From Actinomycetota bacterium (GTDB lineage Bacteria > Actinomycetota > UBA4738 > HRBIN12): a stretch of 64,000 nt of DNA. The notes below the pieces were generated by a model, which was not told the DNA's origin, ran no database searches, and saw only the letters and a list, made by a program, of their open reading frames with translations. Below, in pieces: positions 2,662-46,138 of this stretch. The position numbers were made by a program, and so were the translations under genes. How positions within the stretch are numbered: the stretch's first letter is position 1; the number at the start of each line of letters is the position of its first letter. Location of the stretch: assembly GCA_034667405.1 (NCBI GenBank), contig JAXDJX010000018.1, positions 213,065 to 277,064 of the forward strand, written 5' to 3'.

Positions 2662-4257
2662 ATGAGCACGCTCGACGTGCGCGATCTCTCCGTCGAGGCC
2701 GGCGGCCGCACGGTCGTCCAAGGCCTCACCTTCAGCCTGCGCGAGGGCGACAAGGTGGGCGTGGTCGGGCGTAACGGGGCCGGCAAGACCAGCACGCTCA
2801 AAGTCCTCGCCGGAGAGGAGCCGGCGCTCGCAGGCACGATCGATCATGTGGGGGCGGTCGGCTACCTTCGACAGGATCCCCGTCAGCATCGAGCCGACGA
2901 CGTTCACAGCGGACTGGAACACATCTTGAGCGCACGTGGCCTGGTGGATCTCCAACGGGATCTGGAGAAGGCCAGACTGCAGATCGAAGAGGACCACTCC
3001 GACCGCAACGTCCGGCGGTTCGCCCGGCTCGAAGACGACTACAACCAGCGCGGCGGCTACCAGGCCGAGTCCGAAGCCCGAGCCATCACCCATGGGCTTG
3101 GCCTCGCACAGGATCGGCTGAGCCTTCCCGTAGGCGCGCTCTCCGGAGGTGAACGCCGGCGCTTGGAACTCGCACGGATCCTGTTCGGCGGATCGGATCT
3201 GCTCTTGCTGGACGAGCCGACGAACCACTTGGACGCAGACGCCAAGCATTGGCTCATGAAGTTCCTCGCCGGGTACAAAGGAGCGCTCATGGTCGTCAGC
3301 CACGACCTGGGTCTGCTCGACGCCTCCATCACGCGGATCCTGCACCTCGACCTGGATGGCGTTGTGGAATACCGCGGGACGTACTCGCAGTACCGAGACG
3401 CTCGGGCCAAGGACGAGATCCGGCTCACCGCGCTGGCCGGACGTCAGCAACAGGAGATCCACCGGCTGAAGACGCTCGCCGACTCCATGCGCGGGCAGAC
3501 GGCCAAACGCGCGCGTAAAGCGAAGACCATCGACACGCGCCGGGTGAAGCTCGAAGCGAAGAAGGTGACCGGCCCCGCGCGGGAACGGACCTTCAAGTTC
3601 CGGTTCCCTGAGCCGCCCCATTGCGGGAAGACCATGCTCACGGCGACCGATCTGGCGAAGTCATACGGAGGCCCCCCGGTGTTCGAGGAGGTTGCCTTCT
3701 CCGTGGGCCGCGGCGAGCGGCTCTTGGTGATGGGACTGAACGGCGCCGGGAAGACGAGCCTGCTCCGTATCCTGGCGGGCCAGTCCCAGGCCGACACTGG
3801 TTCGTTCGAACTGGGGTACGGGGCCGAGCTCGGCTACTACGCGCAGGAGCACGAAGGATTGCAGGACGGGGTGGACGTGCTCACCCATATGCGCCAGGCC
3901 TCCGGTGCCGACGACCAAACCTTGCGAGGGCTCCTCGGGATGTTCGGGCTATCCGGCGCCATGGCGTTCCAGGATGCCGGCACGCTGTCGGGAGGGGAGA
4001 AGACGAAGCTGGCCCTCGCGCAGCTGGTGGCGGGCCGCAAGAACCTGCTCCTGCTGGACGAGCCGACGAACAACCTGGATCCGCCGTCGCGCACCGCGAT
4101 CGCCGAGGCGCTTCAGGACTGGCCGGGCGCGATGATCATCGTCAGTCACGATCCAGAGTTCGTCGAAGCGCTTGCTCCCGAACGCGTTTTGATGATGCCG
4201 GAGGGCCAGCTGGACTACTGGGACGACGGCTTGCTGGACCTGGTGGCGCTGGCCTAG
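2662..4257 (+). CDS. ABC-F family ATPase (tandem ABC domains, EttA/Rv2477c-like)
   Basis: Two full ABC cassettes: GRNGAGKTS ... LSGGERRRLELARIL ... LLLLDEPTNHLD, then GLNGAGKTS ... LSGGEKTKLALAQL ... LLLLDEPTNNLD. No TM domain. Start set at the internal Met (MSTLDVRDL) typical of ABC-F proteins; the ORF is open from 2569. Confidence 0.85.
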   Translation: MSTLDVRDLSVEAGGRTVVQGLTFSLREGDKVGVVGRNGAGKTSTLKVLAGEEPALAGTIDHVGAVGYLRQDPRQHRADDVHSGLEHILSARGLVDLQRDLEKARLQIEEDHSDRNVRRFARLEDDYNQRGGYQAESEARAITHGLGLAQDRLSLPVGALSGGERRRLELARILFGGSDLLLLDEPTNHLDADAKHWLMKFLAGYKGALMVVSHDLGLLDASITRILHLDLDGVVEYRGTYSQYRDARAKDEIRLTALAGRQQQEIHRLKTLADSMRGQTAKRARKAKTIDTRRVKLEAKKVTGPARERTFKFRFPEPPHCGKTMLTATDLAKSYGGPPVFEEVAFSVGRGERLLVMGLNGAGKTSLLRILAGQSQADTGSFELGYGAELGYYAQEHEGLQDGVDVLTHMRQASGADDQTLRGLLGMFGLSGAMAFQDAGTLSGGEKTKLALAQLVAGRKNLLLLDEPTNNLDPPSRTAIAEALQDWPGAMIIVSHDPEFVEALAPERVLMMPEGQLDYWDDGLLDLVALA

Positions 4258-4316
4258 TAACTCGCGCCCATGGCCGCCAGGTCGGTATGCTTCGGCGACT
4301 CGAGCGTGGGGGAGCG

Positions 4317-5990
4317 ATGAGCGCGAACGGTTCGGCAGCAGACCTGATCTTCGTCAATGGCGATGTCTACACGGTGGACGGCGTTCGCAGCTGGGCACGG
4401 TCCGTCGCGGTGAAGGATGGTCGCATCGCGGCGGTCGGGACCGAGGACGACGTGATCGACCTTCGCGGCGCGGGAACGGAGGTCGTCGACCTTCACGGTG
4501 GTCTCCTGCTGCCGGGATTCCAGGACGCCCACATCCACCCGGTGGGGGGAGGGTTGGACATGCTCGCATGCGACCTCCACGACCTGCATTCGGTCGACGA
4601 CTATCTGGGTGCCATCCGCGCATACGCGGAGGTGAACCCGGACCGGGAGTGGATCATGGGCGGAGGCTGGTCCATGGATGTCTTCCCGGGCGGCACACCG
4701 ACGAAGGAGCTGCTGGACCGCATCGTCCCCGACCGGATCGTCTACCTGCCGAACCGCGACGGGCACAGTGCCTGGGTGAACTCCCGCGCCCTCGAGGTGG
4801 CGAGGATCACGAAAGACACTCCCGACCCGGGAGACGGCAGGATCGAACGTACGCCCGACGGTGAACCCTCGGGCACGCTGCACGAGGGCGCGGGCGACGC
4901 CGTCGAACAGCTGGCCCCCCACGCGACCGCGCAAGAGCGCTACGACGGGCTGCTCAAGGGACAGGAATATCTGCACTCGTTGGGGATCACCGCGTGGCAG
5001 GACGCGATCATCGGAACATTCGGTTGGGCCGATAACCTCGACACCTATCTGCAGGCGGCCGGCGACGGCTCCCTCACGGCGCGCGTGGTCGGCGCGTTGT
5101 GGTGGGATCGCAATCGCGGTATGGAGCAGGTCGAGGATCTGCTCGCGCAGCGGGAGCGCGGGAAGGCCGGACGGTTCGCCGCCACGAGCGTGAAGATCAT
5201 GCAGGACGGCGTCTGCGAGAACTTCACCGCGGCCGTGCTGGAACCTTACCTCGGCGAAGACGGGAAGCCCTCGCAGAACCGCGGGATCTCGTTCGTCGAG
5301 CCGGAACTGTTGAAGGAAGCGGTCACACGTCTGGATGCCGAAGGCTTCCAGGTGCATTTCCACTCGCTTGCCGAGCGCGCCGTCCGGGAAGCGCTCGATG
5401 CCATCGGAGCGGCCCGGTCGGCCAACGGCATGAACGATCTCCGCCACCACCTGGCGCACATCCAGATCATCCATCCCGACGACATCCCGCGGTTCCGCGA
5501 ATTGGGCGCGGTCGCCAACGCGCAGCCGCTCTGGGCCGCTCACGAGGGCCAGATGGACGACCTCACCATCCCGTTCCTGGGGGAGGTGCGCGCCGGCTGG
5601 CAATACCCGTTCGCAAGTCTGGTGAGAGCCGGCGCGGTGCTCGCGATGGGCAGCGACTGGGGCGTCTCCACACCAGACCCCATCGAGGAGATCCACGTGG
5701 CCGTGAACCGGAAGATGGCGCCGCAATACCTCTACGGGAACGAGAACACGGAGGTCTTCATCCCCGACGAACGACTCGACCTGCCCACGTCCCTCGCGGC
5801 GTTCACGATGGGGTCTGCCTACGTCAATCACCTCGATCGCGAAACGGGTTCGATCGAGCAAGGCAAACTCGCAGATCTCGCGGTGCTGGACAGGAACCTG
5901 TTCGCTCATCCGGTTGAGGAGATCGCCGAGGCACGCGTCATGCAGACCTTCGTGGAAGGGACCCGCGTATTCGCGACGCCGGGCGCTTAG
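4317..5990 (+). CDS. Amidohydrolase family protein (Amidohydro_3 / YtcJ-like metal-dependent hydrolase)
   Basis: N-terminus DLIFVNGDVYTVDG...VAVKDGRIAAVG...LLPGFQDAHIHP matches the YtcJ-like pattern, and the C-terminus has HxH and MGSDW metal-ligand motifs. Start is an internal ATG with upstream GGGGGAG; the longer 3621 ORF overlaps the ABC-F gene. Confidence 0.8.
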   Translation: MSANGSAADLIFVNGDVYTVDGVRSWARSVAVKDGRIAAVGTEDDVIDLRGAGTEVVDLHGGLLLPGFQDAHIHPVGGGLDMLACDLHDLHSVDDYLGAIRAYAEVNPDREWIMGGGWSMDVFPGGTPTKELLDRIVPDRIVYLPNRDGHSAWVNSRALEVARITKDTPDPGDGRIERTPDGEPSGTLHEGAGDAVEQLAPHATAQERYDGLLKGQEYLHSLGITAWQDAIIGTFGWADNLDTYLQAAGDGSLTARVVGALWWDRNRGMEQVEDLLAQRERGKAGRFAATSVKIMQDGVCENFTAAVLEPYLGEDGKPSQNRGISFVEPELLKEAVTRLDAEGFQVHFHSLAERAVREALDAIGAARSANGMNDLRHHLAHIQIIHPDDIPRFRELGAVANAQPLWAAHEGQMDDLTIPFLGEVRAGWQYPFASLVRAGAVLAMGSDWGVSTPDPIEEIHVAVNRKMAPQYLYGNENTEVFIPDERLDLPTSLAAFTMGSAYVNHLDRETGSIEQGKLADLAVLDRNLFAHPVEEIAEARVMQTFVEGTRVFATPGA

Positions 5991-6086
5991 GACCGACCCC
6001 CGGTTGACCGATAGTCAAGGGGACGGTACCGACGCCGTAGCGCCCGATGCTACGGTTGCTGCCACCCGCTGAACGGTCACACGCCC

Positions 6087-7319
6087 GTGAGAACGTTGGC
6101 CGGCGGGTTCATCCAGGAGGGAAGCTACGTGTCCAGTGCCCCGATCGCGCACGAGAAGCTCAGTCCCGCGCTGGGCGATGGCCTCGACGGAAGCAAAACG
6201 CTTCCCGCGGAGGCGTACACCTCCCAAGCCGTCTTCGACTGGGAGGTCGGCCATTTCTTCGAGGATGGCTGGGTGTGCATCGGCCGCACCGACGAACTGA
6301 ACGAACCCGGCGATCAGAAGGCCGTCCGGGTCGGCAAGGAAGGCATCCTCCTGGTGCGCGACGAGGATGGACGTCTCAACGCGTTCTACAACACGTGTCG
6401 TCACCGCGGGCACGAACTCCTCGAGCCCGGTACCAGCCGGCACCTTCGAGCCATCAAGTGCCCGTACCACGCATGGGTGTACGGCTTGGACGGCACACTC
6501 AGCGGCGCCCCGCGCTTCGGTGAGGTAGCCGGCTTCGAGAAGGCGGACTATCCGCTCATCGCGGCCCGGGTTCAAGAGTGGCACGGCTGGGTGTTCGTCA
6601 ACGCCTCGGGTGAAGCGCCCGCGTTCGATCAGTGGGTCGGCAACCTCGACGGTTTGGTCATGCCCTGGGAACCGGAGCGGATGTTCGTCGCCGCCCGGCA
6701 CGAATACATCGTTAAGGCAAACTGGAAGACGATCACCGAGAACTACCACGAGTGCTATCACTGCCCGTCCATCCACCCGGAACTCTGCGTGGTGACCCCA
6801 CCCGATTCGGGCGAGAACTTCGAGCATGACGGGAACTGGGTCGGCGGAAGCATGGAGCTCAAGGATTTCGCCGAGACGATGTCTCTCTCGGGAGCTTCGA
6901 ACGGTGTGCGGGTTCGTGGGCTCAACGACAAGCAGGCGCGGGAGGTCTTTTACTTCGGCCTGTTCCCGAACCTCCTCCTCAGCCTCCACCCCGACTACGT
7001 CATGACGCACCGGTTCGAACCGCTCGGCCCGGGAGAGAGCAAGGTGGAGTGCCAATGGCTCTTCCCGCCCGAGGCGCGCGAGCGGTCTGATTTCAGCCCC
7101 GACTACGCCAGCGAGTTCTGGGATATCACGAACCAGGAAGACTGGTTGGCCTGCGAGTCCGTCTACCGTGGCCTGCAGTCCGGTGGTTCGCGTCAGGGGC
7201 CGTTCTCCTGGAGCGAAGATGAAGTGCATTCATTCATGGCCATGGTGGCCAAGGGCTATCTGGACGGGTATGCCAGCAAACCCCCGAAGATCCACGAACT
7301 GCCCGGCGCCGGCGTCTGA
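6087..7319 (+). CDS. Rieske [2Fe-2S] non-haem iron oxygenase alpha-subunit-like (GbcA/Stc2/CntA-type candidate demethylase/monooxygenase)
   Basis: Rieske CxH...CxxH motifs (CRHRGHEL / CPYHAWVY) plus a catalytic-domain ENYHECYHCPSIHPE mononuclear-iron motif. A possible GTG start at ~6129 has a better RBS. Confidence 0.8.
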   Translation: MRTLAGGFIQEGSYVSSAPIAHEKLSPALGDGLDGSKTLPAEAYTSQAVFDWEVGHFFEDGWVCIGRTDELNEPGDQKAVRVGKEGILLVRDEDGRLNAFYNTCRHRGHELLEPGTSRHLRAIKCPYHAWVYGLDGTLSGAPRFGEVAGFEKADYPLIAARVQEWHGWVFVNASGEAPAFDQWVGNLDGLVMPWEPERMFVAARHEYIVKANWKTITENYHECYHCPSIHPELCVVTPPDSGENFEHDGNWVGGSMELKDFAETMSLSGASNGVRVRGLNDKQAREVFYFGLFPNLLLSLHPDYVMTHRFEPLGPGESKVECQWLFPPEARERSDFSPDYASEFWDITNQEDWLACESVYRGLQSGGSRQGPFSWSEDEVHSFMAMVAKGYLDGYASKPPKIHELPGAGV

Positions 7320-7466
7320 ACGACCCCGGTCTGGATGTCTGACCAGGGGTCGGGAACCTGGCTTGCGTGTTGTCGTGAGTGCTTCCACGATGGGCCCCGC
7401 ACGTATCGGGGGTAGAGGCTGGCCGGCTGAGCGCCGGGGGCCGAGCCCAGACCGGAAAGGAAGCAC

Positions 7467-8624
7467 ATGCCTGAGCCATTCGACATGGGGCTGGTCCAGC
7501 GGGGCGCTCGTAACCGGCGGACCCCGTACTACGAAGCCACCCAGCGCTACGGTCCCAAGGGCTTCACCGTCTACAACCACATGTACTTCCCGATCCGTTT
7601 CTCGACACTCGAGGAGGAGTTCGACACACTCCTGAACGGCGTCACGCTCTGGGATGTCGCCGTGGAACGGTGCCTGGAGATCAGCGGGCCGGACGGGTTC
7701 ACGTTCGCGCAGCTCCTGACCTGTCGTGACCTCTCGAAGTGCGCCGTCGGTCAGGCGAAGTACGTGTTGATCTGTGACAGCGACGGGGGGATCATCAACG
7801 ACCCGGTGCTGACGCGGATGGACGAGAACACCTTCTGGTTCGCACTCGCTTCGTCGGACGCGTTGCTGTTCGCGAGAGGGCTGAAGAACGCGTACCCGAA
7901 CCTCGACGTCAGCATCAAAGAGGCCGACGTGTCCCCACTGCAGGTGCAGGGTCCGAAGTCGAAGGACCTCATGGTGAAGCTCCTCGGCCCCGAGATCTCC
8001 GACCTGAAGTACTACTACTGGACGAACGCGACGATCGCGGGCGCGCCGGTCGTGGTGACGCGCACGGGGTGGACCTCCGAGGTCGGCTACGAGGTCTACC
8101 TCACCGACAAGACCAAGGGGACCGAGGTCTACGAGGCCATCATGGAGGCGGGCCAGGAGTTCGGCATCAAGCCCACCGGGCCATCCGACATCCGCCGCAT
8201 CGAGGGTGCCATCTTCAACCAGGGCGCAGACATGAGCTACAACAACAACGCGTTCGAGCTCGGACTCGATCGTCTGGTTGATTTCAACCTCTCTGATGAG
8301 GCTTCCATCTCGATGGCGGCCTATCGCAAGATCCAGGCTGAAGGCGTGAAGAAGCGGATCAACGGGGTCACCATCGACGGGGATCCGTTCCCAGAGATGA
8401 ACAACGTCAAGTGGCCCGCGTCGATCGACGGAGCGAACGTCGGCAGGGTCACGTCGGCGATCTACTCTCCGCGTCTCAAGGAGAATCTCGGGTACTGCTG
8501 GCTGCCGACGGAGCATTCGGTCGAGGGTCAGAAGGTGACGGTCGACACCGAATGGGGACAGCGCACGGCAACGGTGGTGCCGATGCCGTTCGTCGACCCG
8601 AAGAAGTCCATCCCCGTCTCGTAA
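7467..8624 (+). CDS. GcvT-family aminomethyltransferase-like folate-binding protein (paralogue 1)
   Basis: 385 aa with glycine-cleavage T-protein fold signatures (VWDVAVERCLEISGPD, RRIEGAIFNQG). It lacks the FAD-oxidase domain. Confidence 0.75.
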   Translation: MPEPFDMGLVQRGARNRRTPYYEATQRYGPKGFTVYNHMYFPIRFSTLEEEFDTLLNGVTLWDVAVERCLEISGPDGFTFAQLLTCRDLSKCAVGQAKYVLICDSDGGIINDPVLTRMDENTFWFALASSDALLFARGLKNAYPNLDVSIKEADVSPLQVQGPKSKDLMVKLLGPEISDLKYYYWTNATIAGAPVVVTRTGWTSEVGYEVYLTDKTKGTEVYEAIMEAGQEFGIKPTGPSDIRRIEGAIFNQGADMSYNNNAFELGLDRLVDFNLSDEASISMAAYRKIQAEGVKKRINGVTIDGDPFPEMNNVKWPASIDGANVGRVTSAIYSPRLKENLGYCWLPTEHSVEGQKVTVDTEWGQRTATVVPMPFVDPKKSIPVS

Positions 8625-8778
8625 ACCGCAGTTTTCGAACGCCGTTCAGGGTTCGGATCGGGGCGTGCGAAGTATTCGTCGCACAGCTTTGGTCCGAACC
8701 CTTGCGCGTTCGCCAGTTCGGAGTTGATGCTTGCCGTTGTCCGAGCCGAGGGAGCCCGGACGAACGGAGGAAGATCCG

Positions 8779-9960
8779 ATGGTGAACGAACGGCAGGAGA
8801 TGCTCGAGAAGAGCGCAACGCTGTACTTCGGTCCGTGGTACCGGAAGTCGCCGTTCTTCGAGGCGACCAGACGCGCGGGGTGTACCGCGTACGACATCTA
8901 CAACCACATGTACCTCCCGGGGTACTACGACGACGTCGAGGTCGAGTACTGGGCGTTGAACAACGCCGTCACCGTCTGGGATGTCGGTGTCGAGCGGACG
9001 GTCCAGGTCTCCGGTCCCGATGCCGATCGCCTGATCGACATGATCACCTGCCGTGACCTGACGAAGTGCGCGCTGAAGCAGGGGAAGTACATGTTGGTGA
9101 CCGCTCCGGACGGTTCGATCGTGAACGACCCGGTCCTCCTCCACGTGGCCAAGGACGTCTGGTGGATGCAGCTCGCGGATTCCGATGCGGGCCTGTATGC
9201 GTTGGGCGTCGCGGCCGCAGCTGGGCTCGACGTCGAGGTCAGCCTTCCCGACGTGCACCCGATGCAGGTCCAGGGACCAGACTCCGGTAAGACCTTGGAG
9301 AAGCTCGTGGGCAAGGGCATCTACGACATCAAGTACTACTGGGTCGAAGAGTTCGCGATCAAGGGGATCCCCGTCGTCATCAGCCGAACCGGCTGGACAG
9401 CGATCCCGGGATTCGAGGTCAATCTCCTGGACGGTACGCAGGGCGACGCGCTCTGGGATGCCGTCATGGAGGCCGGCCAGGAGTTCGACATCCGGCCGAT
9501 CGCTCCGTGCGAGGCTCGTCGCATCGAAGGTGGGATCTTCAACTACGGCTCGGACATCAAGCTCGGCGACACACCGTTCCACGTGATGGGCCTGGAGCGC
9601 CTGGTGGAAGGGCAGCCGCAGGACTACATCGGGAAGGCGGCGCTCGAGTCGATCCGCAGGAGCGGCGTAGACCGCAAGCTGGTTGGTATCGAACTCGACG
9701 GGGACGAACTCCGTGCGGAGATGTCGGAGTACTGGTACGCCTTCAAGGACGGGAAGAAGGTCGGCCACATGACCGACGCCGTCTGGTCGCCCGGGCTGAA
9801 GAAGAACATCGGCTACGTCTGGGTTCCCATCGACCTGGCGAACCCGGGCAATGTCCTCGACATCGAGACCGAGGATGGTGGCCACCTGGTCGGGACCACC
9901 ACCACCATCCCGTTCGTGGATCCCAGGAAGGAACGCCCGGCCGCCCCGATGGCGAGCTGA
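8779..9960 (+). CDS. GcvT-family aminomethyltransferase-like folate-binding protein (paralogue 2)
   Basis: About 45% identical to the upstream paralogue along its length (FFEATRRAG, VWDVGVERTVQVSGPD, RRIEGGIFNYG). ATG at 8779 follows a GGAGGAAG RBS; the ORF opens at TTG 8731. Confidence 0.75.
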   Translation: MVNERQEMLEKSATLYFGPWYRKSPFFEATRRAGCTAYDIYNHMYLPGYYDDVEVEYWALNNAVTVWDVGVERTVQVSGPDADRLIDMITCRDLTKCALKQGKYMLVTAPDGSIVNDPVLLHVAKDVWWMQLADSDAGLYALGVAAAAGLDVEVSLPDVHPMQVQGPDSGKTLEKLVGKGIYDIKYYWVEEFAIKGIPVVISRTGWTAIPGFEVNLLDGTQGDALWDAVMEAGQEFDIRPIAPCEARRIEGGIFNYGSDIKLGDTPFHVMGLERLVEGQPQDYIGKAALESIRRSGVDRKLVGIELDGDELRAEMSEYWYAFKDGKKVGHMTDAVWSPGLKKNIGYVWVPIDLANPGNVLDIETEDGGHLVGTTTTIPFVDPRKERPAAPMAS

Positions 9961-10072
9961 TCAGGCGGGAACCCCTCCGGCGTATGCAGGCGCGCGCGAT
10001 ACGCTGGAGGGGTCGAACCGCCGGGTGCATCCGTGTCGAATGGTTCCCGGTTGACTGCCGAAAGGACCACCG

Positions 10073-11182
10073 ATGCGCCGAAGGCTCCTGCTCGTCCCGC
10101 TCGCCCTCCTGATGATGGCGGCCAGTGCGTGCACGCTAACCTATGGCAGCTCTTCGGCCGTCCAGACGGCTCAGATCGAGAACCTTCCTCCACTACCCGC
10201 CTCCGCCCAGCCCGTGGAAGCGGTCGTACGCAGGGTGCTCCCGTCGGTGGTGAGCGTGACGACGGATCTGTTCCAGGCCGATCAGTTCGGCGGTGCGAAC
10301 GAGGGACAAGGCGTGGGAACGGGGTTCGTCGTTCGATCTGACGGCATCATCGTCACGAACTGCCACGTCGTTGAAGGAGCCACGCGCATCACCGTGGCCA
10401 CCTCCGCGGATCATCCCCAGAGGTACACCGCGCGCGTGATCGGCGGGGACTGCGAGCACGATGTGGCGATCCTGAAGATCTCGGCCAATGGCCTGCACAC
10501 CGTCCAACTCGGCAACTCCTCGGGTCTCCAGCTCGGAGAGAGTGTGGTCGCCATCGGATACGCGTTGGCACTCGACGGCGGTCCCACGGTCACCACCGGC
10601 ATCGTCTCGTCACTGCACAGGACCATCAAGGCGCAAGATCCGGGATGCACCACATGCCAGAACGGCCTCCGAACGTACAGCGACATCATCCAGACCGACG
10701 CAGCCATCAACCATGGAAACTCCGGTGGCCCACTCGTCGACATGGCGGGCCGCGTCGTCGGGATGAACAGCGCCGGCGTTGATTCGGCGCAGAGCATCGG
10801 GTTCGCCATCGCCATCGATTCTCTGAAGGAAACCGTCAGCCACGCCGAGACCAACCCGTTGGCGCCTACCGGCTATATGGGCATCGAAACCAGGAGCGTG
10901 ACCGCGGCCATCGCCCTCCAGCTGAACCTCACCGTCAAGAGCGGTGCCTACATCCTGGGCACGACGTCGGGCGGACCAGCCGAGAAGGCGGGGATAAAGC
11001 AAGGGGACGTGATCGTTTCGCTGAACGGCCACCCGATCGCGACATCGGACGAACTGGCACCGATTCTCGATTCCCTGAAGCCGGGAACGACCGTCTCCGT
11101 TCTGGTCGTCGGGAAAGACGGTAGGCGGTCGACGGTCAACGTCACCCTGGGCGAACGACCCCTTCCCACCCAGCTGCCCTGA
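10073..11182 (+). CDS. HtrA/DegP-family trypsin-like serine protease with C-terminal PDZ domain, probable lipoprotein
   Basis: Signal peptide with lipobox-like AASAC; catalytic triad contexts TNCHVV / DVAILKI / GNSGGPL; PDZ region GAYILGTTSGGPAEKAGIKQGDVIVSLNG. Confidence 0.8.
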   Translation: MRRRLLLVPLALLMMAASACTLTYGSSSAVQTAQIENLPPLPASAQPVEAVVRRVLPSVVSVTTDLFQADQFGGANEGQGVGTGFVVRSDGIIVTNCHVVEGATRITVATSADHPQRYTARVIGGDCEHDVAILKISANGLHTVQLGNSSGLQLGESVVAIGYALALDGGPTVTTGIVSSLHRTIKAQDPGCTTCQNGLRTYSDIIQTDAAINHGNSGGPLVDMAGRVVGMNSAGVDSAQSIGFAIAIDSLKETVSHAETNPLAPTGYMGIETRSVTAAIALQLNLTVKSGAYILGTTSGGPAEKAGIKQGDVIVSLNGHPIATSDELAPILDSLKPGTTVSVLVVGKDGRRSTVNVTLGERPLPTQLP

Positions 11183-11325
11183 TCGGCAGGCCAACCTCGT
11201 GACGTCCGGGCCGGCGGAGGCGCCGGCCCCCGAAGGGTGCGTTAGCCTGGTCGCGTGAAGCCCGACCAGTGCACGCTCGCGCCTGCCCTTCCCGTCGTTC
11301 AGCCGCGTGCTCCGGGAGGGGGGGT

Positions 11326-12111
11326 ATGAACCCGCCGTTCCAACCGGGGGAGCGCGTGATGTTCGTCGATCAGCGGGGTCGTACGTACCTGGTCAAGCTT
11401 CAGGCGAAAGGCACGTATCACACGCACAGTGGCACGCTGCCGCACGACGAGATCCTGGGCAAGCCCGAGGGCATCAGGGTGGAGACCTCTGGGGGGATGG
11501 TGCTGACGGCGTTCCGCCCCAGGTTCGCTGATTTCGCATTGAAGATGCCACGCGGAGCCCAGGTGATCTACCCGAAGGACCTAGGCCCGATCCTCATGTA
11601 CGCGGACGTGCATCCCGGAGCGCGGGTGCTTGAGGCCGGGACGGGCTCGGGAGCACTCACCATCGCGCTCCTACGGGCGGTGGGCGGCGAGGGCACGGTC
11701 ACCTCCTACGACCTGCGGGACGAACATCAGGCGCACGCGATCCAGAACATCGAGGCCTTCTTCGGCAAGGTCCCCGCTACCCTCACGCTCCGGACGGGGG
11801 ATGTGCGCGACGTTCCGCCGGAGGAATCCTTCGACCGGTGTCTCCTCGATCTCCCGGAACCGTGGGGCCCGCTTCCGGCCGTCCACAGGGTGCTCGAGCC
11901 GGGGGGTGTCGTGTGCGCCTATCTCCCCACCACAGTGCAGGTCCAGCAGCTGGTTGTCGCGCTGCCGGCTCACGGGTTCCTCCACGTGGAGACGTTCGAA
12001 GTCATGCACCGGGGATGGCACGTAACGGAGCGCAGCGTGCGGCCGGACCACCGGATGGTAGGCCATACGGGGTTCCTCACGATCGCGAGAGCTGTCGGCT
12101 CACCGGCCTAG
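11326..12111 (+). CDS. trmI: tRNA (adenine58-N1)-methyltransferase TrmI
   Basis: Near-collinear similarity to Mtb Rv2118c (MPRGAQVIYPKD, GARVLEAGTGSGALT, HTGFLTIAR), and it sits upstream of arc as in mycobacteria. ATG at 11326 follows a GGGAGGGGGG RBS. Confidence 0.85.
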   Translation: MNPPFQPGERVMFVDQRGRTYLVKLQAKGTYHTHSGTLPHDEILGKPEGIRVETSGGMVLTAFRPRFADFALKMPRGAQVIYPKDLGPILMYADVHPGARVLEAGTGSGALTIALLRAVGGEGTVTSYDLRDEHQAHAIQNIEAFFGKVPATLTLRTGDVRDVPPEESFDRCLLDLPEPWGPLPAVHRVLEPGGVVCAYLPTTVQVQQLVVALPAHGFLHVETFEVMHRGWHVTERSVRPDHRMVGHTGFLTIARAVGSPA

Positions 12112-32883: not shown

Positions 32884-33606
32884 ATGACTGGGGAACACCA
32901 TCCGCCGCTGGGGCGGTCCATCCGAACCGTCTCTCAGCCCAAGCCCGGCGGGGGTGAACGCCGCCTGCACGTCCTCGGACCGAGGGAAGCCGCAGCCTAC
33001 GCGCAGGCAGTGAGCCGCGTTGCTCCGGCGATCGAGCGTCGGCTCGGTCCCGAAGTGTTCGCGAACCGAGGCCCGGGTGCGAGGTCCCTCGAACCGTGGC
33101 GAAGGGCGCGATCTCGATGGAGACGGGCGGCAGCCGATCTCCTGCGATCCGGACCGGTCGCCACGATGGACGTGGTTCGGTGCTACGACCTGATCGCGCC
33201 GGAGATGGTGGGCGCGGCGCTGGAGGCGTCAGGCGCTTCCCACGCCGACGGTGAAGAGATCGTGCGCCTCCTACGTCTCTTCAGGGACGCGGGTGTCGAA
33301 GGGATCCCGGTCGGCCCGGACCCCTCGGCCGTCCTCGCGAACGCCGTACTTGCGGCCGTCGACGAAACCCTCCGCCGGCGAAGGTTCCGATTCGTGCGAT
33401 GGGTCGATGACCTGGTGATCTCGGCGCAGGGTTCCCGGGATCTCGGTGCCGGCGAACTGGCCGTGGAAAGCGCCCTGGCACGGATCGGGCTGACCTCGAA
33501 CGCGGCGAAGCACCATCGCTTCCAAGACCCGGAGATGGCCTGCGCATTCGTCCTCCGCGGTGGCGGGGGAGCGGCCTCAGGCCTTGAGATACTCGGCGGG
33601 CCGTGA
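32884..33606 (+). CDS. Minimal reverse-transcriptase-domain protein (fingers/palm only, 240 aa)
   Basis: Ordered RT motifs: motif 1 SQPKPGGGERRLHVLGP (aa 18-33); motif 2 FANRGPGARS...MDVVRCYDLIAPEMV (aa 59-108); motif 3/4 GIPVGPDPSAVLANAVLAAVDE (aa 139-161); motif 5 FVRWVDDLVIS (aa 170-180, catalytic DD); motif 6 ARIGLTSNAAKHHRF (aa 199-213). No in-frame alternative start exists upstream because of a stop at 32773. The stop overlaps the next gene's GTG (GTGA). Confidence 0.65.
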   Translation: MTGEHHPPLGRSIRTVSQPKPGGGERRLHVLGPREAAAYAQAVSRVAPAIERRLGPEVFANRGPGARSLEPWRRARSRWRRAAADLLRSGPVATMDVVRCYDLIAPEMVGAALEASGASHADGEEIVRLLRLFRDAGVEGIPVGPDPSAVLANAVLAAVDETLRRRRFRFVRWVDDLVISAQGSRDLGAGELAVESALARIGLTSNAAKHHRFQDPEMACAFVLRGGGGAASGLEILGGP

Positions 33607-35117
33607 GGACCCTTTACCGCGCAGCGCGCATCCATACGCTGAGCCATCCACCGACGGGGGAGTGGCTCATGGTCGATGGCCGTCATGTGACGCGAGTCGG
33701 TTCCGGCGAACCCCCGGCCGCGGACCGCACCGTCGATCTCCCCGGTGCCACGATCATCCCGGGGTTCATCGATAGCCACGTCCACCTAACGGCGACCGGG
33801 ATGGCCCTGGACAGCGAGGCCGTCACCCGGGTCCGATCGGCGGCCGACCTCCTCGCGCTCACCCGCACCCTCGCCGCCGACACCCGCGGGGACGCCTTGG
33901 TGCTCCAGGGGTACGACGAATCGCGCTGGAACGATCCGCGCGTGCCGACACTGGAAGAGCTCGATGCGGTGCTGGACATCCCGCTCGTGATCCGCCGTGC
34001 GGACGGGCACGTCGCGTTGGCCAATACCGCCGCGATCGAGCGATCTGGGATCGCGGACGCGCCGGGTTGTGAACGAACGACCGGTGGCGGATTCACCGGC
34101 CGCATCACGCAGGCGGCCGATCAACGGCTGTGGGCATGGGCGACGTCGTCCATGACCGACCACACGGTCCAGGACCACCAACTCCGAGCGGCTGCCCTCG
34201 CCGCCTCCCGGGGAGTCACGACCGTCCACGAGATGGCCATGCCGCATTGGTACGGCCCGCGAGATGTCGAGGTATTCCTCGGTCACCGCGGGCAACTTCC
34301 CGTGGACACCGTGCTCATCGTGGCGAGCACCGACGTAGCCCACTCGATCGAACTCGGGCTCGGTGCCATCGGGGGAGATCTTCCGACCGACGGCTCGATC
34401 GGCGCCCGCACCGCCGCCCTGAGCCTTCCGTACGCCGACGGCTCGGGGGAGGGGACGACCTACGTCCCCGATGAGACCCTGGAGACGTTCTTCGCCGATG
34501 GACATACCGCGGGCCTGCAGGTGGGGGTGCACGCTATCGGCGATCGAGCGATCGAGCAGGTCCTGGGCACCTGGGAGAGGGTCTACCGAGGACTCGACTC
34601 CCGGGAGCGACGCCACTTCCGCGCACGACGGCACCGCATCGAGCATTTCGAGATGCCGTCGCACGCACAGATCGAGCGGGCCGCCATGCTTGGCCTCGCC
34701 ATCAGCGCGCAGCCCACGTTCGACAGCGTGTGGGGCGGCCCGGGAGGCCTGTACGAGACCGGCCTCGGTCGAGCGCGGGCGGCAACGATGAACCCGTTCA
34801 AGACGTTCCTGGAACGGGGACTGGAACTCGGGGTGGGGTCGGATTCGCCGATCACTCCGCTCGATCCCATGCTCACCATCTCCGCGCTCGAGCGCCACCA
34901 CGATCCGGCCGAGCGACTCACCCGGTCACAAGCCATCGGGATCCATACGATCGGCAGCGCACGCCTGGCCCATCAGGAAGAGAAGAAAGGCGCGCTCGGT
35001 CGGGGCATGCACGCCGATCTCGCCGCCTATCCGCAGGATCCGTTCCTCGCCGACGAGGTCGAAGCGATGCGGCCGGTGCTCGTGGTCTCGTTGGGTCGGG
35101 AGGTCTTCGCCGGATAG
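33603..35117 (+). CDS. Amidohydrolase family protein (Amidohydro_3 / YtcJ-like), translationally coupled to the RT-like gene
   Basis: RIHTLSHPPTGEWLMVDGRHVTRVGSG...IIPGFIDSHVHL N-terminus, plus HxH, HEMAMPHWY, VGVHAIGD and VGSDSP metal-site contexts. It is a paralogue of the 4317 gene. Confidence 0.8.
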   Translation: MRTLYRAARIHTLSHPPTGEWLMVDGRHVTRVGSGEPPAADRTVDLPGATIIPGFIDSHVHLTATGMALDSEAVTRVRSAADLLALTRTLAADTRGDALVLQGYDESRWNDPRVPTLEELDAVLDIPLVIRRADGHVALANTAAIERSGIADAPGCERTTGGGFTGRITQAADQRLWAWATSSMTDHTVQDHQLRAAALAASRGVTTVHEMAMPHWYGPRDVEVFLGHRGQLPVDTVLIVASTDVAHSIELGLGAIGGDLPTDGSIGARTAALSLPYADGSGEGTTYVPDETLETFFADGHTAGLQVGVHAIGDRAIEQVLGTWERVYRGLDSRERRHFRARRHRIEHFEMPSHAQIERAAMLGLAISAQPTFDSVWGGPGGLYETGLGRARAATMNPFKTFLERGLELGVGSDSPITPLDPMLTISALERHHDPAERLTRSQAIGIHTIGSARLAHQEEKKGALGRGMHADLAAYPQDPFLADEVEAMRPVLVVSLGREVFAG

Positions 35118-35448: not shown

Positions 35449-35817
35449 ATGACCGATACAGAAGATGTCGTAGAGGACGAAGAAGTCGTCGACGACGAGG
35501 AAGAGATCGAAGATCTGGAGCCTACGGCCGACGATCTGGTCGAGGCCACGACGCCTCCCGATCCCGCCGCCGCCGAAGTCGAATCCATCCAGGACCTCCT
35601 GGTCAAACAGGAGGCTCGTTCCGAGCAGGCTGAAGCCCCCGACGAGGAGGATGAAACCCTCACGCCCTCCTCGGCGAAGGGTGAACGATTGGAGCCGGTC
35701 GACACGAAGGTCGTCCCTATCCAGTCCACCGAGTTCGTATGCAAGAGGTGCTACCTGGTGAAGCACCGGAGCCAGCTGGCGGACAAGAAGAAGATGCTCT
35801 GCCGCGATTGCGCCTGA
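35449..35817 (+). CDS. DUF4193-family protein (acidic N-terminus, C-terminal CxxC...CxxC ribbon)
   Basis: Highly acidic N-terminal half and a C-terminal FVCKRCYLVKHRSQLADKKKMLCRDCA that matches the actinobacterial DUF4193 pattern. Confidence 0.7.
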   Translation: MTDTEDVVEDEEVVDDEEEIEDLEPTADDLVEATTPPDPAAAEVESIQDLLVKQEARSEQAEAPDEEDETLTPSSAKGERLEPVDTKVVPIQSTEFVCKRCYLVKHRSQLADKKKMLCRDCA

Positions 35818-38039
35818 CCCGCTCGGGCCGCTCGACGCTGCTTCCGTTCCAGCTCATCATCGCCGCCCTGGGTGGCACGCTCTTCTCGTTCGCGTTCCCT
35901 CCCGTTGCACTCTGGCCGCTGGCGTTCGTCGCCGTGATCCCCTTGATGTGGGTGCTCCGCGAGGCTCGTCCGCTCCGGGGAGCCGCACTCGGCTTCGTCT
36001 ACGGGGCTGTGGGGTACGGCGTCACGCTCTCCTGGATCCATCGGTTCGGGACCGGTGCGTGGGTAGCGCTCACGGTGCTCTGCGCCCTGTCCACCGCGAC
36101 GGTCGGGCTGCTCTCGCCGCTCGTACTTCGCGCGGGGAGGCCGGTGCTGTCGGCCATCGGTTTCGCCGCGACGTGGACCGTTGTCGACTTCACCAGAGGT
36201 GCCTGGCCCTTCGGCGGATTCACCTGGGGGGCGCTCGGTGTCTCGCAAGTCGACAACCGGGCGACCGTTCGGTTGGCATCGGTCACCGGCGTCTGGGGAG
36301 TGACATTCGTCGTGGTCCTCGCCAACGGGCTGCTGCTCGCGTCCCTGACCGAACGCGGAGCGGGGTGGCGGCGCGGCGCTCGTCTCGGCTCGGCTGCTGC
36401 GGTTGCGCTTGTGCCGGTCCTGGTGCCGTTTTCCATGGCCACCGGCCCATCGGTCGACATCGCGGTCATCCAGACCGACGTGCGCGCCGCGGTAGGGGCG
36501 GGGGGCATCGCGGCCAGGGATGCGGCGGCGCAGCGAACGCTACGCGGTCGGCCGCCGGATCTCGTGGTGTGGGGTGAAGGTGCCGTCGACCCGGCCGCCC
36601 TCGCGGATCCTCACGTTGTGGGCGGCATCCGCGCTGCCATCGGTGAGGTGGGCGCCCCGACCGTGATCGGCGCGGTGATCGATGACCCGGACGGCTCGGA
36701 GCATACGAGCGCGCTGGCGTTTTCCGGGGACGGGCGGCTGGTGGACCGCTACGACAAGGTGCACCTGGTGCCCTACGGCGAGTACGTCCCCTTCCGGAAC
36801 GAACTGACCTGGGTACAGGCGCTGGAGCAGGTGCCGATCGACCGGACGCCGGGGGAGCGGGTCGGGACGCTATCGGTCCCCGGGCTCCCGACCTTCGGGA
36901 CACCGATCTGCTTCGAGAACAGCTTTCCCGGGATCCCGCGCGCCATGGTGGTGGCGGGCGCGGAGTTCATCGTCGTGCCGGTCAACAATGCGTCGTACGG
37001 CTTCAGCGCGGCCGGGGCGCAACATCTTCAGATGAGCCGCCTGCGTGCGGTCGAGGACGGCCGGTGGGTGGTGAACGCGGCGGTGTCGGGACCGAGCGCG
37101 TTCGTCGATCCGAGCGGCCGCGTGGTCGCAGAGGCCGGACTGTTCCGCACCGCTATCCTCAGAGCCACCATCCGGTCCTCGAGCGAACGCACGTGGTACG
37201 TCCGGCTGGGGGACTGGTTCCCCTGGTTCGCTCTGGCCTTGATGGGAGCGGTCACGCTGACGCCTCGCCGGCGACGAGGTGCACGCGGTCCCGTCACACC
37301 GCTCCCGGCCCACCCGCGAGTCTTGGTGATCCTTCCCACTTTCGGGGAAGCAGAGACCATCGGCACGGTCATCGGCCGTCTCCGATCACTGCCCGAGGCC
37401 CCCGATGTCATGGTGGTCGACGATTCCTCCCCGGACGGGACGGCAGACATCGCACGGGTCGCCGGTGAGCAGGATCCGGCGGTCACGGTGATGGTGCGTC
37501 CCACCAGAGCGGGCCTGGCGAGCGCCTACCTCGAAGGGTTCCAGCACGCCTTAGCCGAGGGCTACGACCTCATCGTGGAGATGGATGCCGATCTCTCCCA
37601 CGCTCCGGAGGAATTGCCGCTCCTACTCGCAGGGGCCGCGCAGCACGACCTCACGGTGGGCAGCCGCTATGTACCCGGCGGCTCGGTCACCAACTGGAGC
37701 AGCGCACGCGTCGGCCTCTCCCGTGGGGGAAACATCTACGTCCGATGGATGCTCGGGATCCCGCTCAAGGACGCCACGAGTGGCTACCGGGTGTATCGGC
37801 GAGAACTTCTGACGCGCTTGGTGGAGCAGCCGTTCGCCTCCAATGGGTACGGGTTCCAGATCGAACTCGTCATGCGTGCGTGGCGGATGGGCTACGACGT
37901 CGGCGAGGTTCCCATCACGTTCAGCGAACGCGTCTACGGGGAATCGAAGATCTCCCAGCGGATCGTGGCCGAGGCATTCTGGCTCGTGACCCGCTGGGGC
38001 GTCGGCTCCCGTGTTGGCCGCCGGCTTCCTGGCGACTAA
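35808..38039 (+). CDS. ppm1: Bifunctional apolipoprotein N-acyltransferase (Lnt, CN-hydrolase domain) / polyprenol-phosphate mannose synthase (Ppm1, GT2 domain)
   Basis: N-terminal multi-TM segment and a CN-hydrolase domain with catalytic-Cys context TPICFENSFPG. The C-terminal GT2 dolichol-P-mannose synthase domain has VLVILPTFGEAETIG ... VMVVDDSSPDGT. The two-domain fusion matches Mtb Rv2051c. TTG start at 35808 is assumed; the ORF opens at 35739 and overlaps the DUF4193 gene. Confidence 0.8.
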   Translation: MRLTRSGRSTLLPFQLIIAALGGTLFSFAFPPVALWPLAFVAVIPLMWVLREARPLRGAALGFVYGAVGYGVTLSWIHRFGTGAWVALTVLCALSTATVGLLSPLVLRAGRPVLSAIGFAATWTVVDFTRGAWPFGGFTWGALGVSQVDNRATVRLASVTGVWGVTFVVVLANGLLLASLTERGAGWRRGARLGSAAAVALVPVLVPFSMATGPSVDIAVIQTDVRAAVGAGGIAARDAAAQRTLRGRPPDLVVWGEGAVDPAALADPHVVGGIRAAIGEVGAPTVIGAVIDDPDGSEHTSALAFSGDGRLVDRYDKVHLVPYGEYVPFRNELTWVQALEQVPIDRTPGERVGTLSVPGLPTFGTPICFENSFPGIPRAMVVAGAEFIVVPVNNASYGFSAAGAQHLQMSRLRAVEDGRWVVNAAVSGPSAFVDPSGRVVAEAGLFRTAILRATIRSSSERTWYVRLGDWFPWFALALMGAVTLTPRRRRGARGPVTPLPAHPRVLVILPTFGEAETIGTVIGRLRSLPEAPDVMVVDDSSPDGTADIARVAGEQDPAVTVMVRPTRAGLASAYLEGFQHALAEGYDLIVEMDADLSHAPEELPLLLAGAAQHDLTVGSRYVPGGSVTNWSSARVGLSRGGNIYVRWMLGIPLKDATSGYRVYRRELLTRLVEQPFASNGYGFQIELVMRAWRMGYDVGEVPITFSERVYGESKISQRIVAEAFWLVTRWGVGSRVGRRLPGD

Positions 38040-40922: not shown

Positions 40923-40961
40923 GTCCGTCAGTCTACGAGCGGTCTCCGTGATGACCCTTGG

Positions 40962-41761: not shown

Positions 41762-42004
41762 AACAACCCCGTAATCACGTCGATGTGTTTCGGCAGCGTA
41801 GGGGCTGCGTCCGTGCGTGTCAACGGCGGGACGCAGAGTTGGACTTCCGTGGCCTCAAGTTTGGGGGGGTCGCGTGCCGACATATGACTAGCTAGGAAGA
41901 ACTAGGTTTCCCGACAAGGGCAAACCGGCGGGAACGCCGGGACGCAAAGCTCCGGGTCCCACCGCCCGCGGGGCGAGGACGGCCGAGTCACCGAAGGAGT
42001 ACCG

Positions 42005-45451: not shown

Positions 45452-45535
45452 GTCACCCTCCTCGTCGGTGGAACGGAACGATAGCGGCTCCCGTTGGTGC
45501 GTGGGCCCCCGCCTCGGCAAGTGTCGCCCGTCGGG

Positions 45536-46135: not shown

Positions 46136-46138
46136 CGG

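Follow-up and report, generated by a model that had tools for sequence, protein, structure and literature searches.

The stretch analysed here, 64,000 nucleotides of contig JAXDJX010000018.1 from an Actinomycetota bacterium (the window; G+C 62-67%), carries a gene for a Rieske non-haem oxygenase followed by genes for two paralogous proteins of the GcvT fold, which we call GcvT1 and GcvT2. An amidohydrolase gene precedes them, and a preliminary description of the locus, made from the sequence letters, had taken all four genes as one module for the catabolism of methyl groups. The four genes are indeed co-directional, and Pfam assigns their products as follows.

4317-5990, + strand: metal hydrolase of the Amidohydro_3 family (YtcJ/COG1574 type; PF07969, E=1e-95), 557 aa
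6129-7319, + strand: Rieske + Ring_hydroxyl_A oxygenase, alpha subunit only, 396 aa
7467-8624, + strand: GcvT1, GCV_T + GCV_T_C domains, 385 aa
8779-9960, + strand: GcvT2, GCV_T + GCV_T_C domains, 393 aa

The starts of the Rieske and GcvT2 genes are corrected ones, GTG 6129 and ATG 8779, with further in-frame codons upstream at 6087 and 8731, respectively. Both corrected starts have a GGAGG site 5' and agree with the lengths of homologues, and the 396-aa Rieske product from GTG 6129 is identical to database protein P0001. The spacers between the four genes measure 138, 147 and 154 bp, so that the genes are only moderately close to one another and less tightly packed than had been claimed.

The Rieske protein contains the [2Fe-2S] ligands of the CxH/CxxH type as C90-R-H92 and C111-P-Y-H114 (Pfam Rieske, E=7e-20) together with the catalytic motif ENYHECYHCPSIHP, both of which the preliminary description had recognized and both of which are invariant among homologues. 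The segment N-Y206-H-E208-C209-Y-H211-C212-PSI-H216 aligns column for column with Y203-x-E205-C206-x-H208-C209-xxx-H213 of CntA, as well as with Stc2 and the Ruegeria protein 3n0q. In CntA and Stc2 the bridging Glu, the Cys-x-x-Cys pair and the two iron-binding His are hallmarks of Group V oxygenases (PMC10952381, PMC7948474). A single residue divides this group into clade Va (Tyr/Phe; CntA, choline monooxygenase and OxyBAC), characterized by a pi-cation substrate contact and hydroxylation beside or near N+, and clade Vb (Asn; GbcA, BmoA and Stc2), which consists of demethylases (PMC10952381, PMC7948474). Y206 occupies the column of CntA-Y203, where Stc2 and 3n0q have Asn, and the protein thus has the Va signature and not that of Vb. 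Among the 150 nearest representatives of 50% clusters, nearly all of those with a locatable motif read N[YF]xEC.HC.

CntA, Stc2 and 3n0q are also the closest solved sequences, and aromatic ring dioxygenases score far lower, although identity to every solved Group V member is only about 26-27%. An AlphaFold (AF2) model of the Rieske protein (predicted local distance difference test score, pLDDT, 88) ranked Stc2 and 3n0q first by fold, with template modelling (TM) scores of 0.79-0.82, compared with 0.69-0.73 for CntA (0.79 on target length) and at most 0.70 for ring dioxygenases. Sequence ranking, fold ranking and the E-C-x-H-C signature all place the protein with Group V and not with the ring-hydroxylating dioxygenases. 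By these comparisons it is a putative Group V oxygenase of the quaternary-ammonium type, whose subclade we leave unassigned. Its best NCBIfam model is the GbcA equivalog NF058607, at 184 bits against a cut-off of 670, and the source label 'glycine betaine catabolism A' is therefore unsupported at the equivalog level. The earlier likening to GbcA, Stc2 and CntA holds for the group, while the N-demethylase role that came with it is no more than possible, because the discriminating residue is the Tyr of clade Va and not the Asn of GbcA and Stc2. With the diagnostic residue of one clade, the C-N-cleaving one, and a fold resembling that of demethylases, the protein lends itself well to testing the proposed Va/Vb rule.

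In its ligands, bridging Glu, Cys-x-x-Cys pair, 2-His motif, Va-type Tyr, alpha-only organization and length of about 400 aa, the protein resembles CntA, choline monooxygenase, Stc2, GbcA and BmoA; unlike these systems, it has no reductase of the CntB, GbcB or Stc3/4 type adjacent to it. Pfam scans and an inspection of small Cys-rich open reading frames (ORFs) revealed no Fer2, FAD_binding_6, NAD_binding_1 or ferredoxin gene anywhere in the window, which extends to the full 64 kb the earlier remark that no electron-transfer partner lies nearby. Nor was a reductase or ferredoxin found among the recurrent neighbours of Rieske homologues in 84 related loci.

GcvT1 and GcvT2 are 44% identical to each other, 33-35% identical to DmdA and 25-29% identical to GcvT proteins (25-28% for GcvT1 against those of Bacillus subtilis and Thermotoga maritima). 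For both of them the best family is the DmdA model NF009133, with 332 and 313 bits, respectively, and the equivalog cut-off of 410 bits is reached by neither; a GcvT2 orthologue from the related locus L087 gives 295. The C-terminal domain of Tdm is the second-best family (188 and 168 bits). Against the GcvT models NF001567 (cut-off 300) and TIGR00528 (cut-off 235.85), GcvT1 scores 168 and 136 bits and GcvT2 138 and 100 bits, below the cut-off in every case. The LigM/DesA models yield 51-66 bits against cut-offs of 580 and 800, and LigM and DesA are longer, at about 450-470 aa. The preliminary description had likened the pair to DmdA and LigM alike: the likeness to DmdA stands, and that to LigM does not. 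It was right that the paralogues lack a flavin domain, as Pfam detects no FAD/DAO domain in either.

The best solved relative of both proteins is DmdA of Pelagibacter ubique (3tfh; E=2e-72 for GcvT1 and 1e-64 for GcvT2). In pairwise alignments the states WDV[AG]xER, NDP and R[ST]GW are common to GcvT1, GcvT2 and DmdA (in GcvT1 they read WDVAVER, NDP and RTGW..GYEVY), where GcvT and Tdm proteins have FDVSHMG or MDLSALR, DD and RTGYTGE. GcvT1 keeps the YEVY of DmdA, and GcvT2 has FEVN in its place. A Trp key to the DMSP-specific interaction (DMSP, dimethylsulfoniopropionate; W171 in alignment numbering) and a folate-site Glu and Tyr have been reported for DmdA (PMC7487153). We mapped these residues by our own alignment to W197, E204 and Y206 of 3tfh; the equivalents in this mapping are W, E and Y in GcvT1 and W, E and Asn in GcvT2. 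A neighbour-joining tree of GcvT1 and GcvT2 orthologues from eight loci and four solved sequences, with that of P. ubique as the single DmdA, recovered GcvT1 and GcvT2 as monophyletic sister clades and their union as sister to DmdA, each in 100/100 bootstraps, with Tdm and the glycine-cleavage T proteins outside. An AF2 model of GcvT1 had a pLDDT of 64, too low for use.

Sequence comparison therefore places GcvT1 and GcvT2 as DmdA-like proteins which, by curated criteria, are neither demonstrable DmdA nor T proteins. They share with DmdA (3TFH, NF009133) the two domains without a flavin domain, a length of about 370-390 aa, the motif states and the sister position in the tree. They differ in being two tandem paralogues instead of one gene, in their soil Actinomycetota host as opposed to marine Proteobacteria, in the Asn of GcvT2 at DmdA Tyr206, and in their linkage to a Rieske gene and sometimes to MetV and MetF genes, which for dmdA is not described in the literature that we searched. 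The pair is ancient and highly conserved. A GcvT1-type search gave at least 8,000 candidates, nearly all significant, of which the best 120 are 75-92% identical and most about 80%, and GcvT1 is about 80% identical across many soil contigs.

Comparison of upstream regions among related loci (designated L001 onwards) revealed a promoter layout specific to this lineage. The alignment upstream of GcvT1 contains a palindrome, Op1 (TGACC-N3-GGTCA), a -35-like TTGCG/C, 17-18 nt, a -10-like [CT]ACGAT, a variable leader and GGAGG. A second palindrome, Op2 (TGAAC-N4-GTTCA), accompanies GcvT2 and the Rieske gene. In the window the elements lie as follows.

6005-6017, unstranded: Op1 TGACCGATAGTCA before the Rieske gene, candidate operator or activator site
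6051-6056, + strand: -10-like TACGGT of the predicted Rieske promoter, 33 nt 3' of Op1, at a conserved position
6069-6081, unstranded: degenerate Op2 CTGAACGGTCACA before the Rieske gene, its right half lost (relatives have TGAAC-N4-GTTCA)
7340-7352, unstranded: Op1 TGACCAGGGGTCG before GcvT1
7363-7391, + strand: GcvT1 promoter-like element, -35 TTGCGT (7363-7368), 17 nt, -10 CACGAT (7386-7391)
8636-8712, + strand: long stable hairpin in the GcvT1-GcvT2 spacer, starting with a degenerate Op2-like CGAACGCCGTTCA (8636-8648)
8702-8735, + strand: promoter-like element before GcvT2, -35 TTGCGC (8702-8707), -10 region TGATGCT (from 8725)
9972-10012, + strand: GC-rich hairpin of about 16-17 bp after GcvT2, without a T-tract

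In searches of the 260 nt 5' of each gene that allowed one mismatch, Op1 precedes GcvT1 in 81 of 91 loci, whether or not the Rieske gene is present, and the Rieske gene itself in 15 of 23. None was found before the amidohydrolase (51 loci), GcvT2 (73), MetV/MetF (10), HtrA (23), TrmI (42), ABC-F (37) or TtuA (20), and Arc has one in 4 of 38; unrelated actinobacterial loci have a background of 0.047 Op1 sites per kb. Op1 stands 32-34 nt from the -10-like hexamer, which in the Rieske promoters of relatives reads TAGCAT, TACCAT or TAGACT, in 16 of 21 distinct Rieske regions and 51 of 75 distinct GcvT1 regions.

Op2 has its own distribution. In 45-48 of 57 distinct GcvT1-GcvT2 spacers the palindrome, in the form TGAAY-SATS-MTTCA, stands about 17 nt 3' of a TTGCGC and overlaps the -10 region of that promoter; seven spacers shorter than 60 nt are without it. 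Ten of the 21 distinct regions upstream of the Rieske gene also have it, just 3' of the -10. The 1.16 Mb searched, made up of the window and the close-relative and GcvT1-anchored loci, contains 112 matches, of which 81 stand before GcvT2 and 11 before the Rieske gene. Within the spacers and Rieske 5' regions of L001-L173, examples may be seen in L104, L098, L005 and L146. The core GAAC-N4-GTTC is that of the actinobacterial LexA/SOS box, and the binding factor may be LexA or another protein.

The GcvT1-GcvT2 spacer of the window departs from this pattern. Its RNA fold (8625-8770) reaches -72.5 kcal/mol (z=-4.3), with 0 of 200 shuffles as stable, and no other locus compared has this hairpin sequence, most relatives having the TTGCGC promoter and Op2 instead. 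The promoter-like element before GcvT2 still overlaps a half-degenerate Op2, of which the centre and most of the right half remain. Stable hairpins follow both GcvT1 and GcvT2; the second (fold of 9961-10072, z=-2.4) is a probable transcript end, as judged from its predicted structure. A riboswitch or leader RNA in the spacers was considered and rejected, as Rfam gave no match at the gathering threshold and, at E<=1 in 4200-10200, only a chance-level antisense match. The layout described here is visible only through comparative alignment: a generic sigma-70 and terminator scan gave nothing above shuffle expectation. The spacer DNA of the window shows no blastn-level conservation in relatives.

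These elements indicate that the Rieske gene, GcvT1 and usually GcvT2 have separate predicted promoters rather than forming one operon, which speaks against the single four-gene operon first proposed, with read-through possible. Since Op1 and Op2 are shared among them, the three genes appear tied in regulation, and the amidohydrolase gene is left out.

The regulatory link is accompanied by a positional one. The order ABC-F, amidohydrolase, GcvT1, GcvT2, HtrA, TrmI, Arc is kept in dozens of soil Actinomycetota contigs, and the relatives were sampled from soil, rhizosphere and sediment metagenomes. A Rieske-anchored search of GTDB genomes gave nine close relatives (L001-L009; Rieske identity at least 65%), to which the trio of Rieske, GcvT1 and GcvT2 is confined in that search. 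The Rieske gene is immediately 5' of GcvT1 in 9 of 9, within the frame ABC-F, amidohydrolase, trio, HtrA, (TtuA), TrmI, Arc. GcvT1-anchored searches added 80 metagenome loci, 63 of which cover the region upstream of GcvT1, 57 the region downstream and 33 the region beyond GcvT2. Upstream lie the amidohydrolase in 42, the Rieske gene in 12, an S-adenosylmethionine (SAM) methyltransferase in 1 and other genes in 8. GcvT2 follows in 47 of the 57 and is itself followed by HtrA in 25 of the 33 and by MetV (PF12225) and MetF (methylenetetrahydrofolate reductase, MTHFR), together MetVF, in 7. One relative (L008) has the complete set of amidohydrolase, Rieske, GcvT1, GcvT2, MetV and MetF, another (L169) Rieske, GcvT1, MetV and MetF; MetVF is not in this window. 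MetV-MetF stands directly 3' of GcvT2 in L092 (10576-11873), L008, L151, L154, L158, L159, L164, L168 and L171, and directly 3' of GcvT1 in L169.

The trio has also been reassembled at a different place. In L087-L090 it lies between ileS and the divIVA/sepF region without the amidohydrolase, at identities of 65% (Rieske), 81% (GcvT1) and 64% (GcvT2). This alternative arrangement, seen in L087-L090, L109, L128 and L145 (e.g., L087:7868-15318), has a UbiE/CpaM-like SAM methyltransferase between the Rieske gene and GcvT1; the GcvT1-GcvT2 interval holds an NpdG/F420_oxidored-like reductase, a 164-aa domainless protein and an alpha/beta hydrolase.

In a tree of GcvT1 and GcvT2, the Rieske-positive loci are among the deepest branches and interspersed with Rieske-negative ones, and the Rieske-less loci contain no pseudogene remnants of the gene. 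From this placement, the Rieske gene is probably ancestral and has repeatedly been lost, cleanly. A 3.13 Mb chromosome (L085) has the full frame without the Rieske gene and a 55% Rieske homologue elsewhere (L016). An apparent 902-aa fusion ORF in L102 and L103 was set aside as a probable artefact of ORF calling, its N-terminal part being domainless.

More distant Rieske homologues, at 47-58% identity, occur in Streptomyces, Paenarthrobacter, Gordonia, Mycolicibacterium, Kribbella and Nanopelagicales metagenome-assembled genomes (MAGs), without DmdA-like genes. Their neighbours encode BetI-type TetR regulators, PotD-like ABC transporters, class III aminotransferases, amine oxidases, aldehyde dehydrogenases, acyl-CoA enzymes and some DAO-GcvT (DMGDH-like) fusions, and some adjoin Opp-type transporters with peptidases. 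By gene content, these contexts are of the kind expected for amine or betaine catabolism. The preliminary description had looked to transporters in homologous loci for the substrate; such genes are present at the distant homologues and missing at the trio, where no linked transporter or substrate-binding protein names one. At the distant loci Op1 is found at background level only, and their TetR/BetI regulators therefore do not identify the factor that binds it.

Two groups of distant loci have a composition of their own. At four loci of Nanopelagicales MAGs (L018, L019, L025, L029) the gene for the Rieske homologue (about 54%) precedes those for a PotABCD-like ABC transporter and an 816-aa fusion protein, DAO-GCV_T-GCV_T_C; this linkage to a dimethylglycine/sarcosine dehydrogenase-like protein is an independent association of Rieske and tetrahydrofolate (THF) enzymes. 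Nine further loci (L071, L073, L077-L080, L082-L084) encode a pair of Rieske paralogues that share about 35% identity; the accompanying genes specify a DAO oxidoreductase, an Opp-type ABC transporter, a TetR regulator and peptidases S15, S58 and S9, a gene content that suggests catabolism of N-methylated or proline-rich peptides.

The amidohydrolase had been counted as part of the module. It is directly 5' of GcvT1 in 42 of 63 loci, even where the Rieske gene is missing, and it is absent from the L087-type trio. Because it is also without Op1, we regard it as a syntenic neighbour, probably outside the regulon, and its membership in the pathway was rejected as unsupported. A link to the Rieske gene is conceivable, since a distant locus (L015) has a Rieske homologue beside a 55%-identical amidohydrolase. 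Its best solved relatives are the Pyrococcus hydrolases 3icj and 3igh, both uncharacterised. In L005 the amidohydrolase gene (8163-9827) is split over several frames, as are the amidohydrolase, GcvT1 and GcvT2 in L091 (6372-10456), owing to pseudogene formation or long-read assembly errors. Between the amidohydrolase and Rieske genes of L001 (9413-9841), and likewise in L002, L003 and L006, lies a 142-aa ORF that overlaps the amidohydrolase end and has no Pfam match and no counterpart in the window; it may be spurious in high-GC DNA.

Taken with the sequence comparisons, what the loci show is a positional and regulatory linkage of a predicted Group V Rieske oxygenase with two DmdA-sister proteins. 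We read the Rieske gene, GcvT1 and GcvT2 as a co-regulated set for the transfer of methyl groups from onium compounds to THF with an optional Group V oxygenase, and put the chances for and against this reading as even. The functional unit would be these three genes and not a four-gene operon. GcvT1 and GcvT2 would each, by analogy with DmdA, methylate THF to 5-methyl-THF at the expense of an onium donor. Quaternary ammonium compounds (betaines, for example) or sulfonium compounds (molecules like DMSP or S-methylmethionine) would serve as this donor. Methyl transfer is proposed because of the DmdA-type motif states, the DmdA-sister position and an adjacency to MetVF like that in LigM-MetF systems. 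Where MetV-MetF methylene-THF reductase lies 3' in relatives, it would link 5-methyl-THF to the one-carbon (C1) pool.

In Sphingobium sp. SYK-6, LigM and DesA together with MetF-LigH perform THF-dependent O-demethylation that feeds the C1 pool. There, as in relatives of our locus such as L008, L092 and L151, a GcvT-fold methyltransferase is genetically linked to methylene-THF reductase, and the 5-methyl-THF that it makes would, on this analogy, be the product here too. LigM and DesA differ in their only remote sequence similarity and in acting on aryl methyl ethers, and the window itself is unlike theirs in having no reductase of this kind.

For the Rieske protein, we infer a homotrimer-type Group V oxygenase for cationic N-methylated substrates. 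It might make the substrate of the pair from a precursor, by choline-monooxygenase or CntA-like chemistry, or it might oxidatively remove methyl groups that direct transfer cannot take, with electrons from a generic reductase or ferredoxin encoded elsewhere. One transcription factor, binding Op1, would control the Rieske and GcvT1 promoters, and a second factor, at Op2, would touch those of the Rieske gene and GcvT2. As most relatives have the pair without the Rieske gene, the pair would be the core and the oxygenase an accessory. Glycine betaine or choline-type substrates are mildly favoured on sequence grounds: the annotation is GbcA-like, distant homologues have betaine-type contexts, and an operator described below precedes gcvPA. 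Sulfonium donors are possible.

Several observations weigh against this proposal. The GcvT pair occurs without the Rieske gene in most loci, which makes the pair autonomous in function and the Rieske link a regulatory and positional one only. Both GcvT proteins fall short of the DmdA cut-off, at 33-35% identity to the P. ubique enzyme, and GcvT2 has FEVN for YEVY and thus lacks the folate-site Tyr of DmdA. The Va/Vb signal of the Rieske protein is mixed, as it has the Va Tyr, yet its fold and C-terminal half are slightly nearer to Stc2 (Vb) and its best NCBIfam model is GbcA. No linked transporter, substrate-binding protein or reductase names the substrate, the promoters and operators are predicted from sequence, and the window's own Op2 copies are degenerate. 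Adjacency to MetF fits 5,10-methylene-THF as a product equally well, and the catalysis ascribed to both enzyme clades derives from sequence comparison.

That last product belongs to the alternative that survives best, although we think it unlikely. GcvT1 and GcvT2 would be C1-capture enzymes of the GcvT/Tdm/DMGO kind, in which formaldehyde or an iminium from N-demethylation by the Rieske protein or another oxidase combines with THF to 5,10-methylene-THF, and MetVF would then reduce this for methionine synthesis. The GcvT fold, the rank of the Tdm domain as second-best family, a retained Asp that matches T. maritima D96 and co-regulation with an oxygenase expected to release formaldehyde all agree with it. 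So do the Nanopelagicales Rieske homologues beside DAO-GcvT fusions, and MetVF adjacency is compatible. Tdm, DMGO, DMGDH and SoxA, which trap C1 units as methylene-THF, likewise have a THF-binding GcvT fold in functional association with N-methyl oxidation; their GcvT domains, however, are fused to a catalytic oxidase or Zn/Fe domain, whereas those here stand alone, and they have different motif states and lie outside the GcvT1/GcvT2/DmdA clade. Capture enzymes are moreover hard to reconcile with the roughly two thirds of loci that have the pair without an adjacent oxygenase, or with motif states that match DmdA (WDVxxER against FDVSHMG, ND against DD and GW against GYTGE) and a tree that puts the pair with DmdA at 100/100.

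One or both paralogues might instead be genuine DMSP demethylases, that is DmdA orthologues, with the Rieske protein acting on a related osmolyte. Both the best family and the best solved relative are DmdA, the two proteins conserve the Trp reported as key to the DMSP-specific interaction (PMC7487153), and marine Acidimicrobiales MAGs have been annotated in the literature with DmdA. We nevertheless consider this improbable given scores below the curated cut-off, 33-35% identity and the lack of dmdB, dmdC or dmdD nearby in the loci examined. DMSP is, in addition, scarce in soil, rhizosphere and sediment, from whose metagenomes the relatives come. A 2018 study knew of no Actinobacteria with a functional dmdA.

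The next alternative turns on the glycine-cleavage genes of the window, where a further Op1 was found.

40952-40964, - strand: perfect Op1 TGACCAAGGGTCA before gcvPA; a TAGACT -10 follows after 16 nt and the GTG start (40922) after about 30 nt

This copy overlaps the stop codon of the preceding small ORF, and base composition leads one to expect about 0.07 perfect copies by chance in the window. It is kept, with diverged surroundings, in L175 and L176 (GcvPA 86% identical) and missing in L174 and L177 (GcvPA 73-74% identical). An Op1 at gcvPA as a general feature of the regulon was accordingly rejected, its conservation being limited to the closest relatives; the site hints that in this sub-lineage the predicted regulon extends to glycine cleavage. 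Such an extension would fit a betaine-to-glycine pathway, or a role of GcvT1 as T protein. The window contains gcvPA/PB (38131-40922) and gcvH (45068-45535), with no canonical gcvT beside gcvH/gcvP either here or in L174-L177. A one-mismatch Op1-like TGACCCCCAGTCA at 46171-46183, inside a tRNA-Pro gene (46137-46213, - strand) and upstream of pgsA-like/gcvH genes, is probably a chance match.

GcvT1 could on these grounds be a divergent glycine-cleavage T protein, with GcvT2 a spare paralogue and Op1 the mark of a glycine-cleavage regulon. The perfect Op1 before gcvPA in the window and its closest relatives, the want of a canonical gcvT beside gcvH/gcvP, the presence of GcvT1 in nearly every related contig at a conservation (about 80%) equal to that of Arc (78-86%), and a MetF adjacency that fits a methylene-THF product would all follow from it. 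GcvT1 is, however, far below the T-protein cut-offs (136 against 236 bits, 168 against 300) and shares only 25-28% identity with the GcvT proteins of B. subtilis and T. maritima, the T-protein states FDVSHMG and DD/YTGE are lost in it, and the operator is gone at 73-74% GcvPA identity. The missing neighbour loses force as well, since gcvT is normally unlinked to gcvH/gcvP in Actinobacteria such as Mycobacterium tuberculosis. We judge this alternative to be decidedly improbable.

Least probable of all is an accidental adjacency, in which the Rieske gene was merely inserted beside conserved genes of unrelated function: flanking housekeeping genes in fixed order (because of which co-occurrence within the lineage is not independent evidence), spacers of 138-154 bp that each contain hairpins, and a Rieske gene missing without remnants in most loci speak for it, and it founders on an operator shared at identical spacing and not found at neighbouring genes, on the second shared palindrome, on the trio reconstituted at a different locus, and on the thematically coherent chemistry of the two families.

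Returning to methyl transfer from onium compounds to THF, its strongest form, which we advance tentatively and on balance doubt, is that the DmdA-sister pair constitutes a cobalamin- and homocysteine-independent direct route from onium compounds to THF in abundant soil Actinomycetota, with the Rieske protein supplying or finishing the substrate. Candidate donors are glycine betaine, proline betaine, choline-derived betaine, S-methylmethionine (a soil or plant sulfonium compound) and trimethylsulfonium. To our knowledge, the trimethylsulfonium-THF methyltransferase (EC 2.1.1.19) still lacks an assigned gene, and a literature search on this enzyme returned nothing relevant. The known routes of glycine betaine demethylation, aerobic and anaerobic, are GbcAB, BHMT and MtgBCD; if the proposal were true for glycine betaine, the pair would add a fourth.

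Both kinds of enzyme are known; the combination, the tandem DmdA-sister pair and the regulon appear to be undescribed, as neither a Rieske-DmdA-like linkage nor this DmdA-sister clade turned up in a full-text literature search. Genes for GcvT1 and GcvT2 are very common in soil, rhizosphere and sediment metagenomes, and their current label, 'glycine cleavage T protein', is unsupported by curated models. If the proteins are onium-to-folate methyltransferases, betaines or sulfonium compounds would have in them a widespread terrestrial sink, and uncultured Actinomycetota a new way for methyl groups to enter the C1 pool. Through the predicted regulon, the shared operators offer a handle on the substrate sensor, the transporter and the reductase that is missing here.

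The genes for tRNA-Leu, ABC-F and TrmI flank the four genes as first described.

1266-1355, upstream flank: tRNA-Leu
ending at 4257, upstream flank: ABC-F ATPase
11269-12111, downstream flank: TrmI

HtrA and Pup-proteasome genes are further flanking genes in the window. The preliminary description had placed the module in variable DNA; in fact, synteny with relatives extends over the whole stretch, with variation confined to the Rieske and MetVF genes.

A further Amidohydro_3 protein, a paralogue with 24% identity to the first, is encoded at 33588-35117 (+ strand) and adjoins a gene for an Lnt/glycosyltransferase fusion (35685-38039), an arrangement kept in L174-L177. Near gcvPA, a c-di-GMP-I riboswitch was detected at 41909-41995 (+ strand; 59 bits against a gathering score of 35), directly 5' of the gene for a CAP/SCP-domain protein (ORF 41906-42472), and this CAP gene adjoins MerR genes and gcvPA in L174-L177.

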